Shown here: positions 1 through 15,846 of the stretch, piece after piece | Numbering within the stretch: position 1 is the first letter of the stretch | How the letters are laid out: each line of letters begins with the position of its first letter | DNA from: an uncultured Crenothrix sp. | GTDB lineage: Bacteria > Pseudomonadota > Gammaproteobacteria > Methylococcales > Methylomonadaceae | Length of the DNA stretch: 64,000 nucleotides | Assembly: GCA_964450225.1 (NCBI GenBank) | Contig: CAYVFT010000002.1 | Coordinates: 4,044 to 68,043, forward strand | Direction of reading: 5' to 3' | Translations under genes and position numbers: made by a program | Notes under the pieces: model-generated | The model's input: the letters and a program-made list of their open reading frames with translations, nothing else | The model's database searches: none | Told to the model about the DNA's origin: nothing

Positions 1-3000
1 ACTCAAGCTGCTCTTCTGGAACAGGCTTACGTGCAGGCTGGCATCAATCCAGCTGACATCGACTACCTCGAAGCACACGGCACTGGTACTATTGTCGGCG
101 ACCCGATTGAGTCGCAAGCCATTGGTCATGCATTGGGCAAGAGCCGACCCAAAAATAGTCCACTCCTTATCGGCTCGGTGAAGAGCAATCTTGGGCATCT
201 CGAAGCAGCCTCTGGCGTGGCAGGTCTAGTAAAAGCACTCTACTGCATCCAGCATCGGGTGGTGCCTGCAACTATTGGCATTAAGAACCCCAATCCAAAT
301 ATCCAGTTTGACAATTGGAACATCAAGGTTGTTACCGAAAACAGGCAACTTAAGAAAACAGGGAAACTTATTATTGGAGTTAATTCATTTGGCTTCGGAG
401 GTGCCAACGCGCACGTAATCCTGGAAAGTCACGAACGGCAGAAAGCCAAGGTACCCAGGCACCTTAAAACACCTCTTCTGCCGATCGTTCTCTCCGCAAA
501 AGACAATGTCGCGTTAAAAGCGGCAGCCCGCGAGTTTTCCGCATTTCTGAATGAGCAAACTCAATCCGAACTTTATGACATCGCCCATAACGCAGTATTT
601 AGGCGCGAATGGCATGAATACCGAGCAATATTCTACGGTGCAACAACAAAAGTCATCGCCAATGAGTTACTCAACTTTGCCAACAATGTGCCCGGGCAAC
701 TTCAGTTAGAAACCGGAGTTTCATTGCAAAACCCTTCCGGGCCGGCGTTTATCTATTCTGGCAATGGCTCCCAATGGGTGGGAATGGGCAAACGCTTGTT
801 AGAAGAGGAGCCGCTTTTCAGAGAAACTATCAGGGAAATTGATGTCATTTTTCGTCGCCATGCCGATTTCTCACTAGAGGACGAACTGGCCGGCAGAAAT
901 GGCGAAGGCCGCTACGAATTCACGGAAATCGCGCAACCAGCCCTGTTCGCTCTTCAGATTGGAATCACGCAAATGCTACGGCATAGGGGTATCATGCCTG
1001 TAGCTGTGGCGGGACACAGCGTAGGCGAAGTCGCCGCGGCTTGGGCTTCAGGTTCATTGACGCTAGAAGCCGCCGTGGATGTAATTTATCAACGCAGCCG
1101 ACTGCAAGGAACGACCAAAGGCAAGGGAGAAATGACTGCTGTCGGGCTGGGCCATGAAGCTGCCCAAAATTTACTGGCTGAACTGGGTCTAGTGCAATCA
1201 CTTGATATTGCCGGAATCAATAGCTCCAGCGGAGTGACTATCGCCGGAAACCCGAAATTACTCTCCCTGCTTGAATCTGCTTTAAACGAACGAGGCTTCT
1301 TCAATAAACGGCTGGACCTTGACTACGCATTTCACAGCCCGGCCATGGACGAGATCGAAGCCGGAATCAGAGAAACATTGGCAGAGCTCAAACCGGGAAA
1401 AACTCAAGCACCTTTTTACTCGACTGTGACCGGCACACTGCTCAATGGAACGGAACTGGACGCCGAATACTGGTGGCACAACATCCGCAAACCCGTATTG
1501 TTCAAACAAGCTATCAAGAGCATTCTGGATGATGGTATCAACATCTTTATCGAAATCGGTCCCCATGCCGTTTTACGCAGTTACATCAATGACTGTTTGA
1601 AAGACACGTCGACTGAGGGTCGTCTCATTCCCACAGTCGCTCGTGGTGACGACGCCCCTCAACGGGTTTGGGGTGCATGCAGCCAGGCAATTATCGCCGG
1701 CGCAAGTATCGACTGGCGGCACATATTTACAAGACCTGGTCGTTTTGTCCAGCTTCCAAACTACCCTTGGCAGCGCGAACGCCACTGGCACCCGGTTACG
1801 ACTGAATCAATTGGCTTGCTCGATCGACGAAAAGCCCATCCTCTGCTGGGTTACCCGCTCAAACAGCATGAACTCACCTGGGAAAACCAGCTCGACCCGA
1901 AACTCAATCCCACCTTAGCCGATCATGTGGTTGGAGAAGCCACCATATTCCCTGGCACGGGCTTTTCCGAACTCGCTCTGGCAGCAGCTTTGGCTTGGCA
2001 CCCCGGCGATTTAGCCGAAATCGAGGAACTCGAAATTCGCTCCCCGCTACTACTGAGTAACGACCACGCCAAGCTCATTCGCTTAAGCATCGAAGCCCAG
2101 GACGGCAGCCTGACCATCAAAGGCCGGGAGCATATCAGCACGGAACCCTGGACCCTGCATGCTGTAGGCCGCATCCTGCGTGAACCTCGCGGCATTCTGT
2201 TGGGACAGGAAAGCCCTGTATTACCCACGCGCCAGCCCGATTTCAACGGCACCAGCCATGAACTGCTTACCCAGGCAGTCGGCCTTGCTTATGGCCCCGC
2301 GTTCCAGTGCATTGATCACGGCTGGGTAGATAATGGTTCCGCATTGGCTGTCTTCAGGACACCGGAAAGTGTCGAGAGCGAACTGGAGCATACCCACCTC
2401 CACCCGGCCATTCTGGATTGTACCTTCCAGTTAATCATTCAGTTATTGCAGGAAGATGTTGGCGTTCACGATGGATTTACTTTTGTCCCCACCAAGATGG
2501 GTCGAATTGCTTTCCGCGTCAGTACGGCAAGACCCGCTCTTGCCCGCGCCACATTACTGCGTCGATCTCCACACTCCCTAACTGCGGAATTTACTGTTTT
2601 TGATACCAACGGTTTAGCCATAGCCGTCGTTAAGGAAGCCCGATTCCGCAGCGTACGCCTAAGCAAAAGCGCAGCGGATCATCTGCGTTTTCTCGATTAC
2701 CACGGAACGCCAAAGCCACATTCTTTTGATTTGGATGCCACGCCGATTATTGCCTTCGAAAGCGTTCAGTTGGTCATTGCCGAATTGGCAAGACGTGCAG
2801 CACTCAAGGGTACCCATCGTCGCTACTCGGAAGAAGTGGATCCCTTGCTCGACAGTCTGTGCAGCCGATTCACCCGGCAAGCCTTACAACAACTATCGAC
2901 AGATGGCGAAACAATATCTTCCCAAACAATTGAGAATTATCGAGCCGCCAACCCAGAAATCGAGCCTTTCCTTGACCATCTGCTGTCCCTGGCCCAGGAT

Positions 3001-15117: not shown

Positions 15118-15846
15118 TCATAGCGAGGTGCATGGAGACGAAACAATCTGATTAATAACGGAGAATTTTTTATCCGCTACCAAGGCGCTGCAAACTCCCT
15201 CCTCCAACTCAAAGTCCAAAACATGCCATGCCGAAGGCGTCCCACATTTTGCAGGAATCCTTAAAAATTCTGCCGGATTTTCAGGGTTAATGACACACTG
15301 ATTTAATCCTAAAGCAATGCCATAACCTGTGGCTTTTACAAAGGCTTCTTTCTTTGTCCAGGTGCGGTAAAACGCCTGGTTTTTTTGGGTTTCCGGTAAC
15401 TGAATCCAGTAAGTGGCTTCTTCTTTAGAAAAACTTTTATTAACCAATCCAGATAAATTACTTCTTTGCCCACAAATCTCAACATCAACCCCCAGCCGAC
15501 AATTCCAACCCATGGCAATCATCCACCTGTCTGCTGAGTGAGATAAATTGAATGCCAACTCGGGATAATCAGCCAGATAGGGTTTACCATGTTCGGCTTT
15601 TTTTATCCTTATCTTTTCCGGCGACTGATTAAGCACTTGAGCCAACAGGTTCCTTAATCGTCCATGTATTTCTACATAGCGTTGGTGTAACAATGCATTT
15701 TTAAATTTTCCTGCCTGAGTTTGCTCGGCTTCGTCCAGAACACCCCAGTAAGCTTGATAATGCGTGTTCTCGCCGGTTATCTTGCCGTGCCATATTTCTA
15801 CTTCATTAACGCCCAACAACCGCCCTGCCCTCACCTCGTCTGTCAC
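15118..15846 (-). CDS. 4'-phosphopantetheinyl transferase, Sfp type
   Basis: GKPYL...FNLSHS, GVDVE, and WTKKEAFVKATG motifs. Confidence 0.85.
   Translation of the reverse strand: MTDEVRAGRLLGVNEVEIWHGKITGENTHYQAYWGVLDEAEQTQAGKFKNALLHQRYVEIHGRLRNLLAQVLNQSPEKIRIKKAEHGKPYLADYPELAFNLSHSADRWMIAMGWNCRLGVDVEICGQRSNLSGLVNKSFSKEEATYWIQLPETQKNQAFYRTWTKKEAFVKATGYGIALGLNQCVINPENPAEFLRIPAKCGTPSAWHVLDFELEEGVCSALVADKKFSVINQIVSSPCTSL

Follow-up and report, generated by a model that had tools for sequence, protein, structure and literature searches.

What does a cell make when a polyketide synthase (PKS) and a PLP-dependent alpha-oxoamine synthase (AOS) are encoded next to enzymes that prime capsules with Kdo? 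This question is raised by a locus at one end of the DNA stretch analysed here, 64,000 nucleotides from a contig of an uncultured Crenothrix sp. (the window). A sequence-only reading had placed nine genes there in two convergent operons, and had proposed that a PKS-derived chain is released by the AOS and reduced to a sphingoid-like amino alcohol that is tied to Kdo chemistry. The nine genes and their arrangement were confirmed by ORF and family analysis (Table 1), and both operons are tightly coupled. The complete PKS gene (G000:C2:3171-10838, encoding 2555 aa) starts 873 nt upstream of the window.

Table 1. Genes of the locus, with positions in the window and the evidence for their assignment.
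Feature	Position	Strand	Evidence and remarks
PKS, SgaA/WcbR/RkpA type	1..6795	+	Pfam KS, AT, DH, ER, KR, ACP; gene cut by the window edge
AOS (PLP-dependent alpha-oxoamine synthase), SgaB/WcbT/RkpG type	6797..8146	+	HMM scores, homologue identity
GT21/HpnI-like membrane glycosyltransferase (GT)	8204..9406	+	Pfam GT21, structure match
Class I SAM-dependent methyltransferase (MT)	9390..10373	+	Methyltransf_23 at 1.6e-23
Sulfatase-fold transferase, LtaS/LtaP/GacH-like, WcbQ/RkpI type	10405..11931	-	PDB sequence matches, AlphaFold/Foldseek
SDR, SgaC/WcbP/RkpH type	11921..12697 (longest ORF 11921-12778; start refined)	-	adh_short at 5.9e-40, YxxxK motif
KpsS-type beta-Kdo transferase, WcbO/RkpJ type	12694..13920 (longest ORF 12694-13968; start refined)	-	Capsule_synth
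Half-size KpsC, C-terminal type	13917..14960	-	Identity to C halves, tree
HetI/Sfp-type PPTase	15118..15846	-	ACPS and AASDHPPT_N domains; HetI 116 bits

The ends of the two operons are separated by a gap of 31 nt. On the minus strand, the genes for KpsC, KpsS, the SDR and the sulfatase-fold enzyme are translationally coupled via overlaps; specifically, ATGA start/stop overlaps link KpsC to KpsS and KpsS to the SDR, and the SDR and sulfatase-fold genes share 11 nt. On the plus strand, the first 17 nt of the MT gene lie within the end of the GT gene. The block has the look of a horizontal acquisition, with a GC content of ~52% compared to 45.6% genome-wide and a tRNA-Leu adjoining it. The assembly is fragmented, with a genome completeness of 91.6%.

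A Pfam domain scan of the PKS gave the order KS-AT-DH-ER-KR-ACP, with a non-catalytic spacer of ~640 aa between DH and ER, and neither a thioesterase nor a loading module was detected in the protein. The motifs of all domains are intact (KS Cys-His-His, AT GHSVG, DH His, the NADPH sites of ER and KR, KR Tyr, and ACP DSL). The enzyme is a fully reducing type I PKS of the iterative type. It shares 52-80% identity with AOS-adjacent PKSs across 80 loci. The AOS gene begins 1 nt past the PKS stop codon, and the earlier statement that an AONS-family enzyme directly follows an ACP-ending PKS was thus borne out, both in the measured gap and in the domains. Its PLP lysine motif (TLSK) is intact, and 19 of the 20 residues around this lysine that could be compared are the same as in the printed stretch of PfSgaB. 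Homologues from Beta-, Gamma-, and Deltaproteobacteria are 68-84% identical to the AOS. Other PKS and AONS pairs, such as Fum1/Fum8 of fumonisin synthesis, likewise combine a reducing PKS that lacks a thioesterase with a PLP-dependent oxoamine synthase that off-loads the chain before ketoreduction. The likeness to Fum1/Fum8 is one of description, and that system differs in being fungal, in using alanine instead of serine, in serving toxin production as secondary metabolism, and in having no link to Kdo transferases.

A close functional precedent is found in Pseudomonas fluorescens MYb115, where PfSgaA and PfSgaB give rise to C24-C28 sphinganines and to species 154 Da heavier, which were read as phosphoglycerol sphingolipids (Peters 2025, Nat Commun, PMC12134224). 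PfSgaB is specific for L-serine, and PfSgaC has been proposed as the KDSR (PMC12134224). As in the window, the AOS comes straight after an iterative type I PKS without a thioesterase, and a KDSR-like SDR is nearby. Loci of the P. fluorescens group that share the MYb115 layout (four genes between AOS and SDR, according to the MYb115 locus tags) encode proteins with 68-71% (AOS), 52-54% (PKS), and 56-62% (SDR) identity to those of the window; these values refer to the group loci. By analogy, the AOS is predicted to be a chain-releasing, serine-condensing enzyme and the SDR a 3-ketosphinganine reductase. The census of SgaAB clusters names the same genera as the loci found here, and Sinorhizobium takes fourth place among them (PMC12134224). 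The adjoining KpsS/KpsC or LtaS-like genes are not mentioned in that paper (PMC12134224).

Two further systems resemble the locus in their gene content. In the capsule locus CPS-I of Burkholderia pseudomallei, BPSL2787 encodes an AONS, BPSL2789 a PKS, BPSL2790 a sulfatase, BPSL2791 an SDR, and BPSL2792 KpsS (PMC4275268). Matched by gene descriptions, wcbO-P-Q-R-(S)-T (BPSL2792-2787) thus offers the same set as the window, namely KpsS, SDR, a transmembrane sulfatase-family protein, a type I PKS ('fatty acid synthase'), and an AONS-type acyl-CoA transferase. The Burkholderia genes share one strand and are embedded in a complete capsule locus, whereas those of the window form two convergent operons with the export genes elsewhere; furthermore, an LpxC-like WcbS stands between PKS and AONS in Burkholderia and an acetyltransferase follows, while the window lacks WcbS and carries the GT and MT instead. 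In the rkp-1 region, we take rkpA, G, H, I, and J to be the counterparts of the window genes (rkpU is also found in this region). The wcbPQRT genes have been called capsule lipid biosynthesis genes (PMC11766843), with the mechanism unknown in the literature. Similarly, rkp-1 of Sinorhizobium meliloti and S. fredii, a region defined by genetics, is required for K-antigen and for the export of poly-Kdo; its role is described as both making and modifying a specific lipid carrier (PMC4881576). The locus is a copy of the known sga/wcb/rkp-1 module, and its pathway is not an undescribed one.

Conservation of the module was assessed in related genomes. Across 80 genome loci, the PKS and AOS genes are almost always neighbours, the pairing being broken only on contigs that are short or truncated; the sulfatase-fold/SDR/KpsS/KpsC block accompanies the pair in ~30 loci from distant taxa, with SDR identities of 52-82%. 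In the window, the thioesterase-less KS-AT-DH-ER-KR-ACP PKS with its immediate AOS and the co-conserved SDR and sulfatase-family membrane protein represent the sga/wcb/rkp-1 arrangement. In a class sample of 400 genomes, where AOS presence was counted at an identity of at least 59%, all four AOS genomes have KpsS, KpsC, and the sulfatase-fold gene together with it on one contig; the sulfatase-fold gene was found in none of the eight KpsS-positive genomes of this sample without AOS. The LtaS-like gene tracks the lipid genes, represented by the AOS, rather than the Kps genes. Co-conservation in relatives, on which the sequence-only reading had made its pathway depend, was hence seen both in the PKS/AOS pairing of the 80 loci and in the co-occurrence within the class sample. 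It holds for PKS, AOS, the LtaS-like gene, SDR, KpsS, and KpsC; GT, MT, and PPTase, which had been included in the proposal, lie outside the conserved core.

Of these accessory genes, the GT scores just above the Pfam GT21 cut-off (24.5 versus 21.7 bits) and far below that of the HpnI equivalog (42 versus 310), and its structure matches GT21/HpnI clusters of the Atlas at TM 0.86-0.89. No GT homologue was found in the 400 class genomes. In metagenomes, the GT occurs together with the MT and KpsS-like genes; homologues of GT and MT are neighbours in 47 of 80 loci. By their distribution, GT and MT are lineage-specific accessory genes in a variable tailoring slot; in Pseudomonas, this slot holds a GNAT, and KpsC has two modules, as opposed to the GT21/MT pair and single KpsC-C of the window. 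Only the PPTase matches PF01648 among the proteins of the genome; its GC content is genome-like (44%), and it is missing from the 80 related loci. Although outside the conserved module, it probably activates the ACP of the PKS.

The sulfatase-fold protein is most similar in sequence to LtaP and GacH among PDB entries (4e-12). Its AlphaFold model (pLDDT 83) shows five TM helices in an N-terminal bundle followed by a sulfatase-fold domain, and a Foldseek search with this model returned LtaP, GacH, and LtaS as top matches (3e-12 to 1e-9). Glu232, Thr274, Asp454, and His455 are invariant, and thus the metal-binding residues and the Thr nucleophile of LtaS/GacH-type enzymes are kept. The protein scores well below the curated LtaS equivalog (19 versus 970). 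On the strength of the fold and the active-site residues, it is a candidate for the addition of phosphoglycerol to a sphingoid base. The suggestion in the sequence-only reading of a non-phospholipid anchor for Kdo is probably wrong, since phosphoglycerol sphingolipids are among the Pseudomonas products and an LtaS/GacH-like enzyme is co-conserved with the lipid genes.

KpsS matches Capsule_synth (PF05159) with 246 bits and carries the GT107 motifs, QxxxD at 241-245 and HP at 283-284; its score against the NCBIfam KpsS equivalog is below the cut-off (277 versus 600). A genome search showed that it is the sole KpsS of the genome, and it is predicted to place the first Kdo on a lipid acceptor. 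KpsC, described before as half-size, indeed comprises 347 aa with one module, in which the QxxxD and HP motifs are present. Its identity is 45-52% with the C halves of dual-module KpsC proteins and 34-39% with their N halves, and in a phylogenetic tree the N modules split from a group of C modules and half-size proteins with a support of 100/100. The protein is accordingly of the C type, and a role as a single C-terminal-type module acting as beta-(2->7) Kdo transferase is predicted. The motifs are shared with KpsS/KpsC of E. coli group 2 and with the split KpsC of Thermosulfurimonas dismutans (PMC10148158), and Asp165 has the identical residue number in T. dismutans KpsC-C and the window protein. 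Unlike in these systems, no KpsC-N (beta-2,4) module, and hence no two-module KpsC, was found in the 91.6%-complete genome, and the acceptor lipid is probably other than phosphatidylglycerol. KpsC-N is also missing from five other genomes with the half-size gene, some of them complete. As no N-type module was found, a linker of two Kdo residues is predicted, and the alternating linker of 5-9 residues known from E. coli could not be made in the known way. KpsC-C acts directly on, and first on, the product of KpsS (PMC10148158).

Export genes (kpsMT/kpsDE) had been reported as missing from the window; none was found among its ORFs, but kpsM-T-E-D is present elsewhere in the genome (C70:1-4357), with scores under the equivalog cut-offs. 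At genome level, kpsM/T/E/D together with KpsS and KpsC thus make up the gene set of a group 2-like, ABC-transporter-dependent capsule, with KpsMTED on a contig other than that of the locus. In related loci, kpsMTED lies directly 3' of KpsS (L009) or ~13 kb beyond the compared stretch (L037).

Taken together, we consider it probable that the locus is a horizontally acquired sga/wcb/rkp-1 lipid module fused to the Kdo-priming enzymes of a group 2-like capsule. In the proposed pathway, the PKS, which lacks a thioesterase and would be activated by the PPTase of the locus, would iteratively build a very long saturated acyl-ACP. The AOS would free this chain by condensing it, under decarboxylation, with an amino acid (L-serine by orthology), and the resulting 3-keto long-chain base would be reduced by the SDR to a sphinganine-type base. 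With phosphatidylglycerol as the donor, the LtaS/GacH-like enzyme would then place glycerol phosphate on the C1 hydroxyl, giving a phosphoglycerol sphingolipid that mimics lyso-phosphatidylglycerol. KpsS would add the first beta-Kdo and the single KpsC-C-type module one beta-(2->7) Kdo, and the glycolipid would be extended and/or exported via kpsMTED. The GT21-like transferase and the MT may act on the lipid or its head group in a lineage-specific manner. The steps up to the sphinganine-type base, and phosphoglycerol sphingolipids as such, are known from orthologues and would apply here by analogy; the steps from glycerol phosphate transfer onwards, including tailoring by GT and MT, we infer. 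A phosphoglycerol-sphinganine made by the LtaS-like enzyme would accordingly be the presumed acceptor of KpsS.

The lipids may instead have nothing to do with the capsule. The products of PKS, AOS, SDR, and the LtaS-like enzyme would be free sphinganines and phosphoglycerol sphingolipids that serve in the membrane or in signalling, KpsS and KpsC would prime the capsule on ordinary phosphatidylglycerol, and their adjacency would reflect co-regulation of envelope functions. Both classes of lipid were indeed detected by Peters et al., with no need of capsule genes to explain them (PMC12134224), and the characterised capsule termini are (lyso)phosphatidylglycerol (PMC10148158). As MYb115 accumulates free sphinganines (PMC12134224), a capsule-independent role of the lipid is conceivable. 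We nevertheless regard this explanation as rather unlikely, given the coupling of KpsS to the SDR and sulfatase-fold genes by ATGA and other overlaps, the presence of KpsS and KpsC on the same contig in each AOS genome of the class sample, the position of KdsA after the AOS in Achromobacter and Bordetella holmesii, and the effect of wcb and rkp-1 mutations on capsule production (PMC3735121; PMC4881576).

A second alternative concerns the acceptor of KpsS and the site of action of the LtaS-like enzyme. KpsS might glycosylate sphinganine or an N-modified derivative directly, and the LtaS-like enzyme might work in the periplasm, like GacH/OpgB, and put glycerol phosphate on the exported glycan or the Kdo linker. 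Catalytic domains of the LtaS family are normally extracytoplasmic, and KpsS acts at the cytoplasmic face. This topology counts against a phosphoglycerol-sphinganine as the KpsS acceptor; the characterised LtaS, GacH, and EptA-type enzymes, the first two of which are among the fold matches together with LtaP, all have extracytoplasmic catalytic domains, and a Cobetia paper speculates that WcbQ puts glycerol phosphate on the polysaccharide (PMC11766843). For the enzyme of the window, the positive-inside count, by itself, suggests a cytoplasmic catalytic domain (family-averaged 8.2 versus 1.8 K+R). In addition, MYb115 does contain phosphoglycerol sphingolipids, with a mass 154 Da above that of sphinganine (PMC12134224), and the sulfatase-fold gene follows the AOS and not KpsS (4/4 versus 0/8 genomes), which makes a periplasmic action on the glycan improbable.

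The weakest alternative, an AOS of BioF, Kbl, or CqsA type in a locus without any sphingoid pathway, is effectively refuted already: bioF is the top-scoring HMM for the AOS and homologues are annotated by JGI as 8-amino-7-oxononanoate synthase, but the enzyme remains under the curated cut-offs for BioF (TIGR00858, 340 versus 426 bits), Kbl (302 versus 460), and CqsA (NF005526, 154 versus 428), is coupled to a thioesterase-less PKS in nearly all 80 loci, and has an orthologue that is a serine-specific SPT in vitro, while a separate true bioF scoring above the cut-off (447 bits) was found by a genome profile search at C99:8372-9544. The AOS is thus not the sole bioF of the genome; the sequence-only reading had named the opposite outcome, an AOS that groups firmly with BioF and is the genome's one bioF, as fatal to its proposal. 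The bacterial SPT cut-offs are missed as well (NF047599/600/603; 297/640, 262/500, and 197/670 bits), which places the AOS outside the canonical SPT families, yet it may work in an SPT-like manner. With the biochemistry of the Pseudomonas orthologue, the co-conservation, and the separate bioF, the core of the original proposal, a released and reduced PKS chain tied to Kdo chemistry, is supported.

Within the module-plus-capsule pathway, we tentatively put forward, as a real possibility short of a probable one, that PKS-made very-long-chain sphinganine with glycerol phosphate added by the LtaS-like enzyme replaces (lyso)phosphatidylglycerol under the KpsS/KpsC beta-Kdo linker, here and in related loci. 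Such capsules would be sphingolipid-anchored, and in the KpsC-C-only sublineage the linker would consist of Kdo-(2->7)-Kdo and nothing more, with GT21 and MT decorating the lipid. In our literature search, no published demonstration of a sphingolipid at a capsule terminus was found. Such a link from sphingolipid to capsule is absent from the 2025 SgaAB paper.

In ABC-transporter-dependent capsules, the conserved glycolipid at the terminus is regarded as Kdo-linked (lyso)phosphatidylglycerol. An extra lipid module stands beside KpsS in many bacteria, among them Burkholderia, Bordetella, Sinorhizobium, and Pseudomonas as well as numerous environmental lineages. As a genome annotation, the window is otherwise an ordinary further member of this known module, set apart by its half KpsC and the extra GT/MT pair. 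It adds evidence from genome comparison that the LtaS-like gene goes with the lipid genes and not with Kps, and it adds a GT21/MT tailoring pair that is also found alongside KpsS-like genes elsewhere. With KpsS and KpsC-C only, it is a natural minimal version that can help to establish how short a functional Kdo primer may be. The literatures on PKS-derived sphingolipids and on wcb/rkp capsules do not cite each other. If the phosphoglycerol sphingolipid described in 2025 is the true acceptor of KpsS, PKS-derived bacterial sphingolipids and the wcb/rkp 'lipid carrier' would be one pathway, and the 30-year-old question of the rkp-1/wcb product would become directly testable.

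The gene set noted in the sequence-only reading proved to be real, and the chemical logic of the proposed candidate pathway, a polyketide-derived, sphingoid-like aminolipid made beside Kdo transferases, is sound, but the pathway is not new: the locus is a copy of the known sga/wcb/rkp-1 module. The wcbO/P/Q/R/T part of Burkholderia pseudomallei CPS-I comprises the same gene set, annotated there as KpsS, SDR, "transmembrane protein; sulfatase", "fatty acid synthase; type I PKS WcbR" and "acyl-CoA transferase; AONS" (PMC4275268), and capsule is reduced in wcbR mutants (PMC3735121). 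In a 2025 study of Cobetia, wcbPQRT are listed as capsule-lipid genes of which "little is known" (PMC11766843), and the rkp-1 region of Sinorhizobium is credited with the synthesis of a specific lipid carrier on which K-antigen and poly-Kdo are exported (PMC4881576). In Pseudomonas fluorescens MYb115, the PKS PfSgaA and the alpha-oxoamine synthase (AOS) PfSgaB yield C24–C28 sphinganines as well as species heavier by 154 Da, interpreted as phosphoglycerol sphingolipids; PfSgaB is in vitro a serine palmitoyltransferase (SPT) specific for L-serine, and the neighboring SDR, PfSgaC, is the proposed ketoreductase (Peters et al., 2025, PMC12134224). Burkholderia, Bordetella, Methylobacterium, Sinorhizobium, and Pseudomonas head that study's census of 6101 SgaAB-type clusters, in which Sulfuriferula, Methylobacter, Collimonas, and Trichlorobacter also appear; nowhere does its text use the words capsule, Kps, Kdo, or sulfatase (PMC12134224).

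All genes named from the sequence were confirmed by an ORF listing and Pfam/NCBIfam scans of the window. The PKS is truncated at the window edge; its full-length product on the contig (2555 aa) has the domain order KS-AT-DH, a spacer of ~640 aa, and ER-KR-ACP, with intact catalytic motifs. Neither a thioesterase nor a loading module was detected by a domain scan of the full gene, and the spacer gave no Pfam methyltransferase match. The PKS stop and the AOS start lie 1 nt apart, followed on the same strand by a GT21/HpnI-like transferase (GT) and a SAM methyltransferase (MT). The opposite strand, pointing at this operon across a gap of 31 nt, encodes a HetI-type PPTase, a KpsC of 347 aa, KpsS, the SDR, and a sulfatase-fold protein with five transmembrane helices. 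With refined starts, KpsC/KpsS and KpsS/SDR share ATGA overlaps, and the SDR and sulfatase-fold genes overlap by 11 nt. The PKS bears a charged tail of ~55 aa past the ACP, and the AOS an N-terminal extension of ~75 aa that is absent from BioF, Kbl, and SPT structures; both might serve in docking during the ACP-to-AOS hand-over. In a PDB sequence search, KpsS found no match and the SDR none at E ≤ 1e-25. Rfam matched only a tRNA over the locus, and promoter and terminator scans gave results at or near chance.

Coordinates of the features discussed. Plain numbers are window positions; G, genome (G000, source assembly; others, same-class sample); C, contig; L, fetched locus.
Feature	Location	Strand
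PKS, full length	C2:3171-10838	+
PKS charged tail, residues about 2500-2555	about 6630-6795	+
AOS	6797-8146	+
AOS N-terminal extension, residues 1-75	6797-7021	+
GT21/HpnI-like transferase	8204-9406	+
SAM methyltransferase	9390-10373	+
Sulfatase-fold (LtaS-like) gene	10405-11931	-
Half-size KpsC	13917-14960	-
PPTase	15118-15846	-
TolC, membrane-fusion proteins, short SecA, M50 protease	18229-28097	
Giant ORF	28512-63998	-
tRNA-Leu(TAA)	G000:C2:2092-2178 (L002:2092-2178)	
Radical-SAM/DUF3641 and DUF3047 genes	L002:247-1882 (G000:C2)	-
kpsM-kpsT-kpsE-kpsD operon	C70:1-6167 (L095), including the phosphomannomutase gene	
KpsS with adjoining Capsule_synth frame	G200:C57:35054-37885	
MT/GT21-like/P450/KpsS-like cassette, metagenome contig	L163:8868-13873	
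MT/GT21-like/P450/KpsS-like cassette, metagenome contig	L110:9857-16794	
AOS homologue in long frame	G189:C31:7768-8943	
AOS homologue in long frame	G349:C207:8621-9790	
AOS homologue in long frame	G033:C2:246022-247140	

The AOS was judged against curated HMM cut-offs and against the genome's own bioF; this separate, true bioF was found on contig C99 (447 bits, above the cut-off). Comparison with the PfSga proteins of MYb115 was confined to short printed motifs. The AOS is strikingly conserved: relatives with 68–86% identity occur in Methylobacter, Sulfuriferula, Collimonas, Accumulibacter, Achromobacter, Bordetella, Pseudomonas, and Trichlorobacter/Geobacter, among others, and extend to distant classes and phyla.

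Co-conservation of the nine genes, which the sequence-only reading had proposed as a check, was borne out for part of the set. Of 80 genome loci, nearly all have the PKS immediately 5' of the AOS, and those that do not are short or truncated contigs; the sulfatase-fold/SDR/KpsS/KpsC block accompanies this pair in ~30 loci, in distant taxa. The GT, MT, and PPTase genes showed no conservation with the module across these loci. Among 400 same-class genomes, four carry the AOS at ≥59% identity, in each case sharing a contig with KpsS, KpsC, and the sulfatase-fold gene; eight more genomes have KpsS but lack both the AOS and the sulfatase-fold gene. The sulfatase-fold gene thus tracks the lipid genes and not the Kps genes. 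With so few and in part related genomes (G106 and G289 belong to one genus), this amounts to a pattern but not to a statistic. Weaker AOS matches (≤56% identity) in G010, G033, G189, and G349, genomes without Capsule_synth, were set aside as other AOS families. Those in G189, G349, and G033 (50–56% identity) lie inside open frames of ~1100 aa and probably represent a different, fused AOS family.

By sequence, the nearest solved relatives of the sulfatase-fold protein are LtaP, the Listeria LTA primase, and GacH, a streptococcal glycerol-phosphate transferase. In an AlphaFold model derived from 20 orthologues (pLDDT 83), five transmembrane helices are followed by no other fold than a sulfatase-type domain; Foldseek ranked LtaP, GacH, and LtaS at the top and PbgA and EptA/MCR-1 lower. 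The presumed metal ligands and the Thr nucleophile are invariant. As an addition of 154 Da corresponds to exactly one glycerol phosphate, the LtaS-like enzyme is the obvious candidate for adding the phosphoglycerol head group in MYb115. The product, one very long chain with phosphoglycerol, would resemble lyso-phosphatidylglycerol, the known KpsS acceptor. The weak point of this assignment is topology, because LtaS-type domains normally lie outside the cytoplasm. On family average, loops 30–44 and 83–116 contain 8.2 Lys and Arg residues, whereas the N-tail and the remaining two loops have 1.8; together with five transmembrane helices, this charge bias is predicted to place the catalytic domain in the cytoplasm.

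The half-size KpsC scored 271 bits against PDB 6MGD versus 126–143 bits against KpsC-N structures. It shares 45–52% identity with the C halves and 34–39% with the N halves of the dual-module KpsC of B. holmesii and P. fluorescens. A tree built from 26 N and 26 C modules plus six half-size proteins set the N modules apart from the C modules and half-size proteins with support of 100/100. No KpsC-N was found in the source genome (91.6% complete) or in five other genomes with a half-size KpsC, among them two isolates and an assembly with a single chromosome. The E. coli KpsC works on the KpsS product with its KpsC-C module first, after which KpsC-N forms the beta-2,4 linkage (PMC10148158). The simplest prediction from these sequences would be a primer of the form lipid-Kdo-(7<-2)-Kdo, and not an alternating linker of 5–9 residues. 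In the class-sample genome G200, which is without an Sga-type AOS, KpsS adjoins a Capsule_synth match in an open frame of 375 aa that looks like a putative single-module KpsC; half-size KpsC may therefore not be confined to sphingolipid-linked loci.

The GT has a GT21/HpnI-like fold and is rare, with no match at E ≤ 1e-30 in 400 other same-class genomes. A metagenome scan with an alignment of GT homologues returned 80 loci: an MT homologue stands beside the GT homologue in 47, and 17 have a KpsS-like gene no more than about 4 kb away, with a cytochrome P450 adjoining the GT in the loci examined. PKS and/or AOS homologues were found beside the GT in six, and in two of these the PKS and AOS are closely related to those of the window (AOS ~80% identical); the whole sulfatase-fold/SDR/KpsS/KpsC block was found there in one. 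In a Methylobacter locus (L003), distant homologues of GT and MT (28% and 36% identity) fill the slot after the AOS. Based on these neighborhoods and the shared slot, the GT21/MT pair is, as far as gene context indicates, a tailoring cassette that travels in association with KpsS-type lipid priming. In other lineages, the slot holds N-acyl, N-formyl, and N-acetyl transferases (a 2-oxoacid-dehydrogenase-type acyltransferase in Collimonas, a formyltransferase in Trichlorobacter, a GNAT in Pseudomonas) or KdsA (Achromobacter, B. holmesii). By analogy with these transferases, the base or its head group might be glycosylated and N- or O-methylated, which is a reasonable guess, no more. In two loci on soil and other metagenome contigs, MT, a GT21-like gene, cytochrome P450, and a KpsS-like Capsule_synth gene recur as a cassette, in L110 with an additional ACP/AMP-ligase/acyltransferase fusion; neither has a PKS or AOS within 10 kb. 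This cassette may belong to a different lipid-Kdo pathway with the tailoring pair in common.

The two Capsule_synth genes of the lipid locus are the only ones in the genome. Export genes, not seen among the ORFs of the window, were located on contig C70 as a kpsM-kpsT-kpsE-kpsD operon that is preceded by a phosphomannomutase gene and runs off the contig end; these are the only group 2-type export genes in the genome. In a Noviherbaspirillum locus (L009), close homologues of all four (59–82% identity) directly follow KpsS. One KpsE homologue each was present in five of five other module-bearing genomes searched, ~10 kb from KpsC in Collimonas and, for L037, ~13 kb past the end of the fetched locus. 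The PPTase is the sole PF01648 match in the 91.6%-complete assembly, in which no AcpS was found; its gene has the GC content of the genome and overlaps the upstream gamma-glutamyltranspeptidase gene by 41 nt. This HetI/Sfp-type enzyme may be the single general PPTase of the cell and not cluster-specific. The only acyltransferase-domain proteins in the assembly are the PKS and FabD, and the assembly contains no 16S gene.

The eight genes from PKS to KpsC have a GC content of 50–57%, compared to 45.6% for the genome and 37–44% for the flanks. A tRNA-Leu gene precedes the PKS start by ~1 kb and the window start by ~1.9 kb; no exact repeat of its 3' end of at least 16 nt was found on contig C2. 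None of the genomes sampled from the family and order of the source organism has the AOS, KpsS, sulfatase-fold gene, or GT. The GC contrast, the tRNA, this absence, and the high AOS identity to distant taxa point to horizontal acquisition of the PKS-to-KpsC block, which looks like an acquired island. Upstream of the tRNA are genes for a radical-SAM protein with DUF3641 and a DUF3047 protein, native-like in GC (41–42%) and not conserved with the module. On the other side, a giant ORF of ~11,800 aa and the adjacent TolC cassette appear unrelated to the lipid locus. Near-identical DNA occurs in metagenomes from sludge, bioreactor, sediment, wetland, and soil. In metatranscriptomes from three sludge studies, contigs span 23–30 of 30 locus bins, a weak hint of expression only, since the contigs are strandless and DNA carry-over is uncontrolled.

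This copy of the module stands out by its KpsC-C-only configuration and its GT21/MT cassette, and the analysis adds comparative support for the LtaS-like enzyme as the candidate phosphoglycerol-adding step. Of wider interest for the whole sga/wcb/rkp-1 family is the phosphoglycerol sphingolipid as a candidate Kdo acceptor of the capsule.
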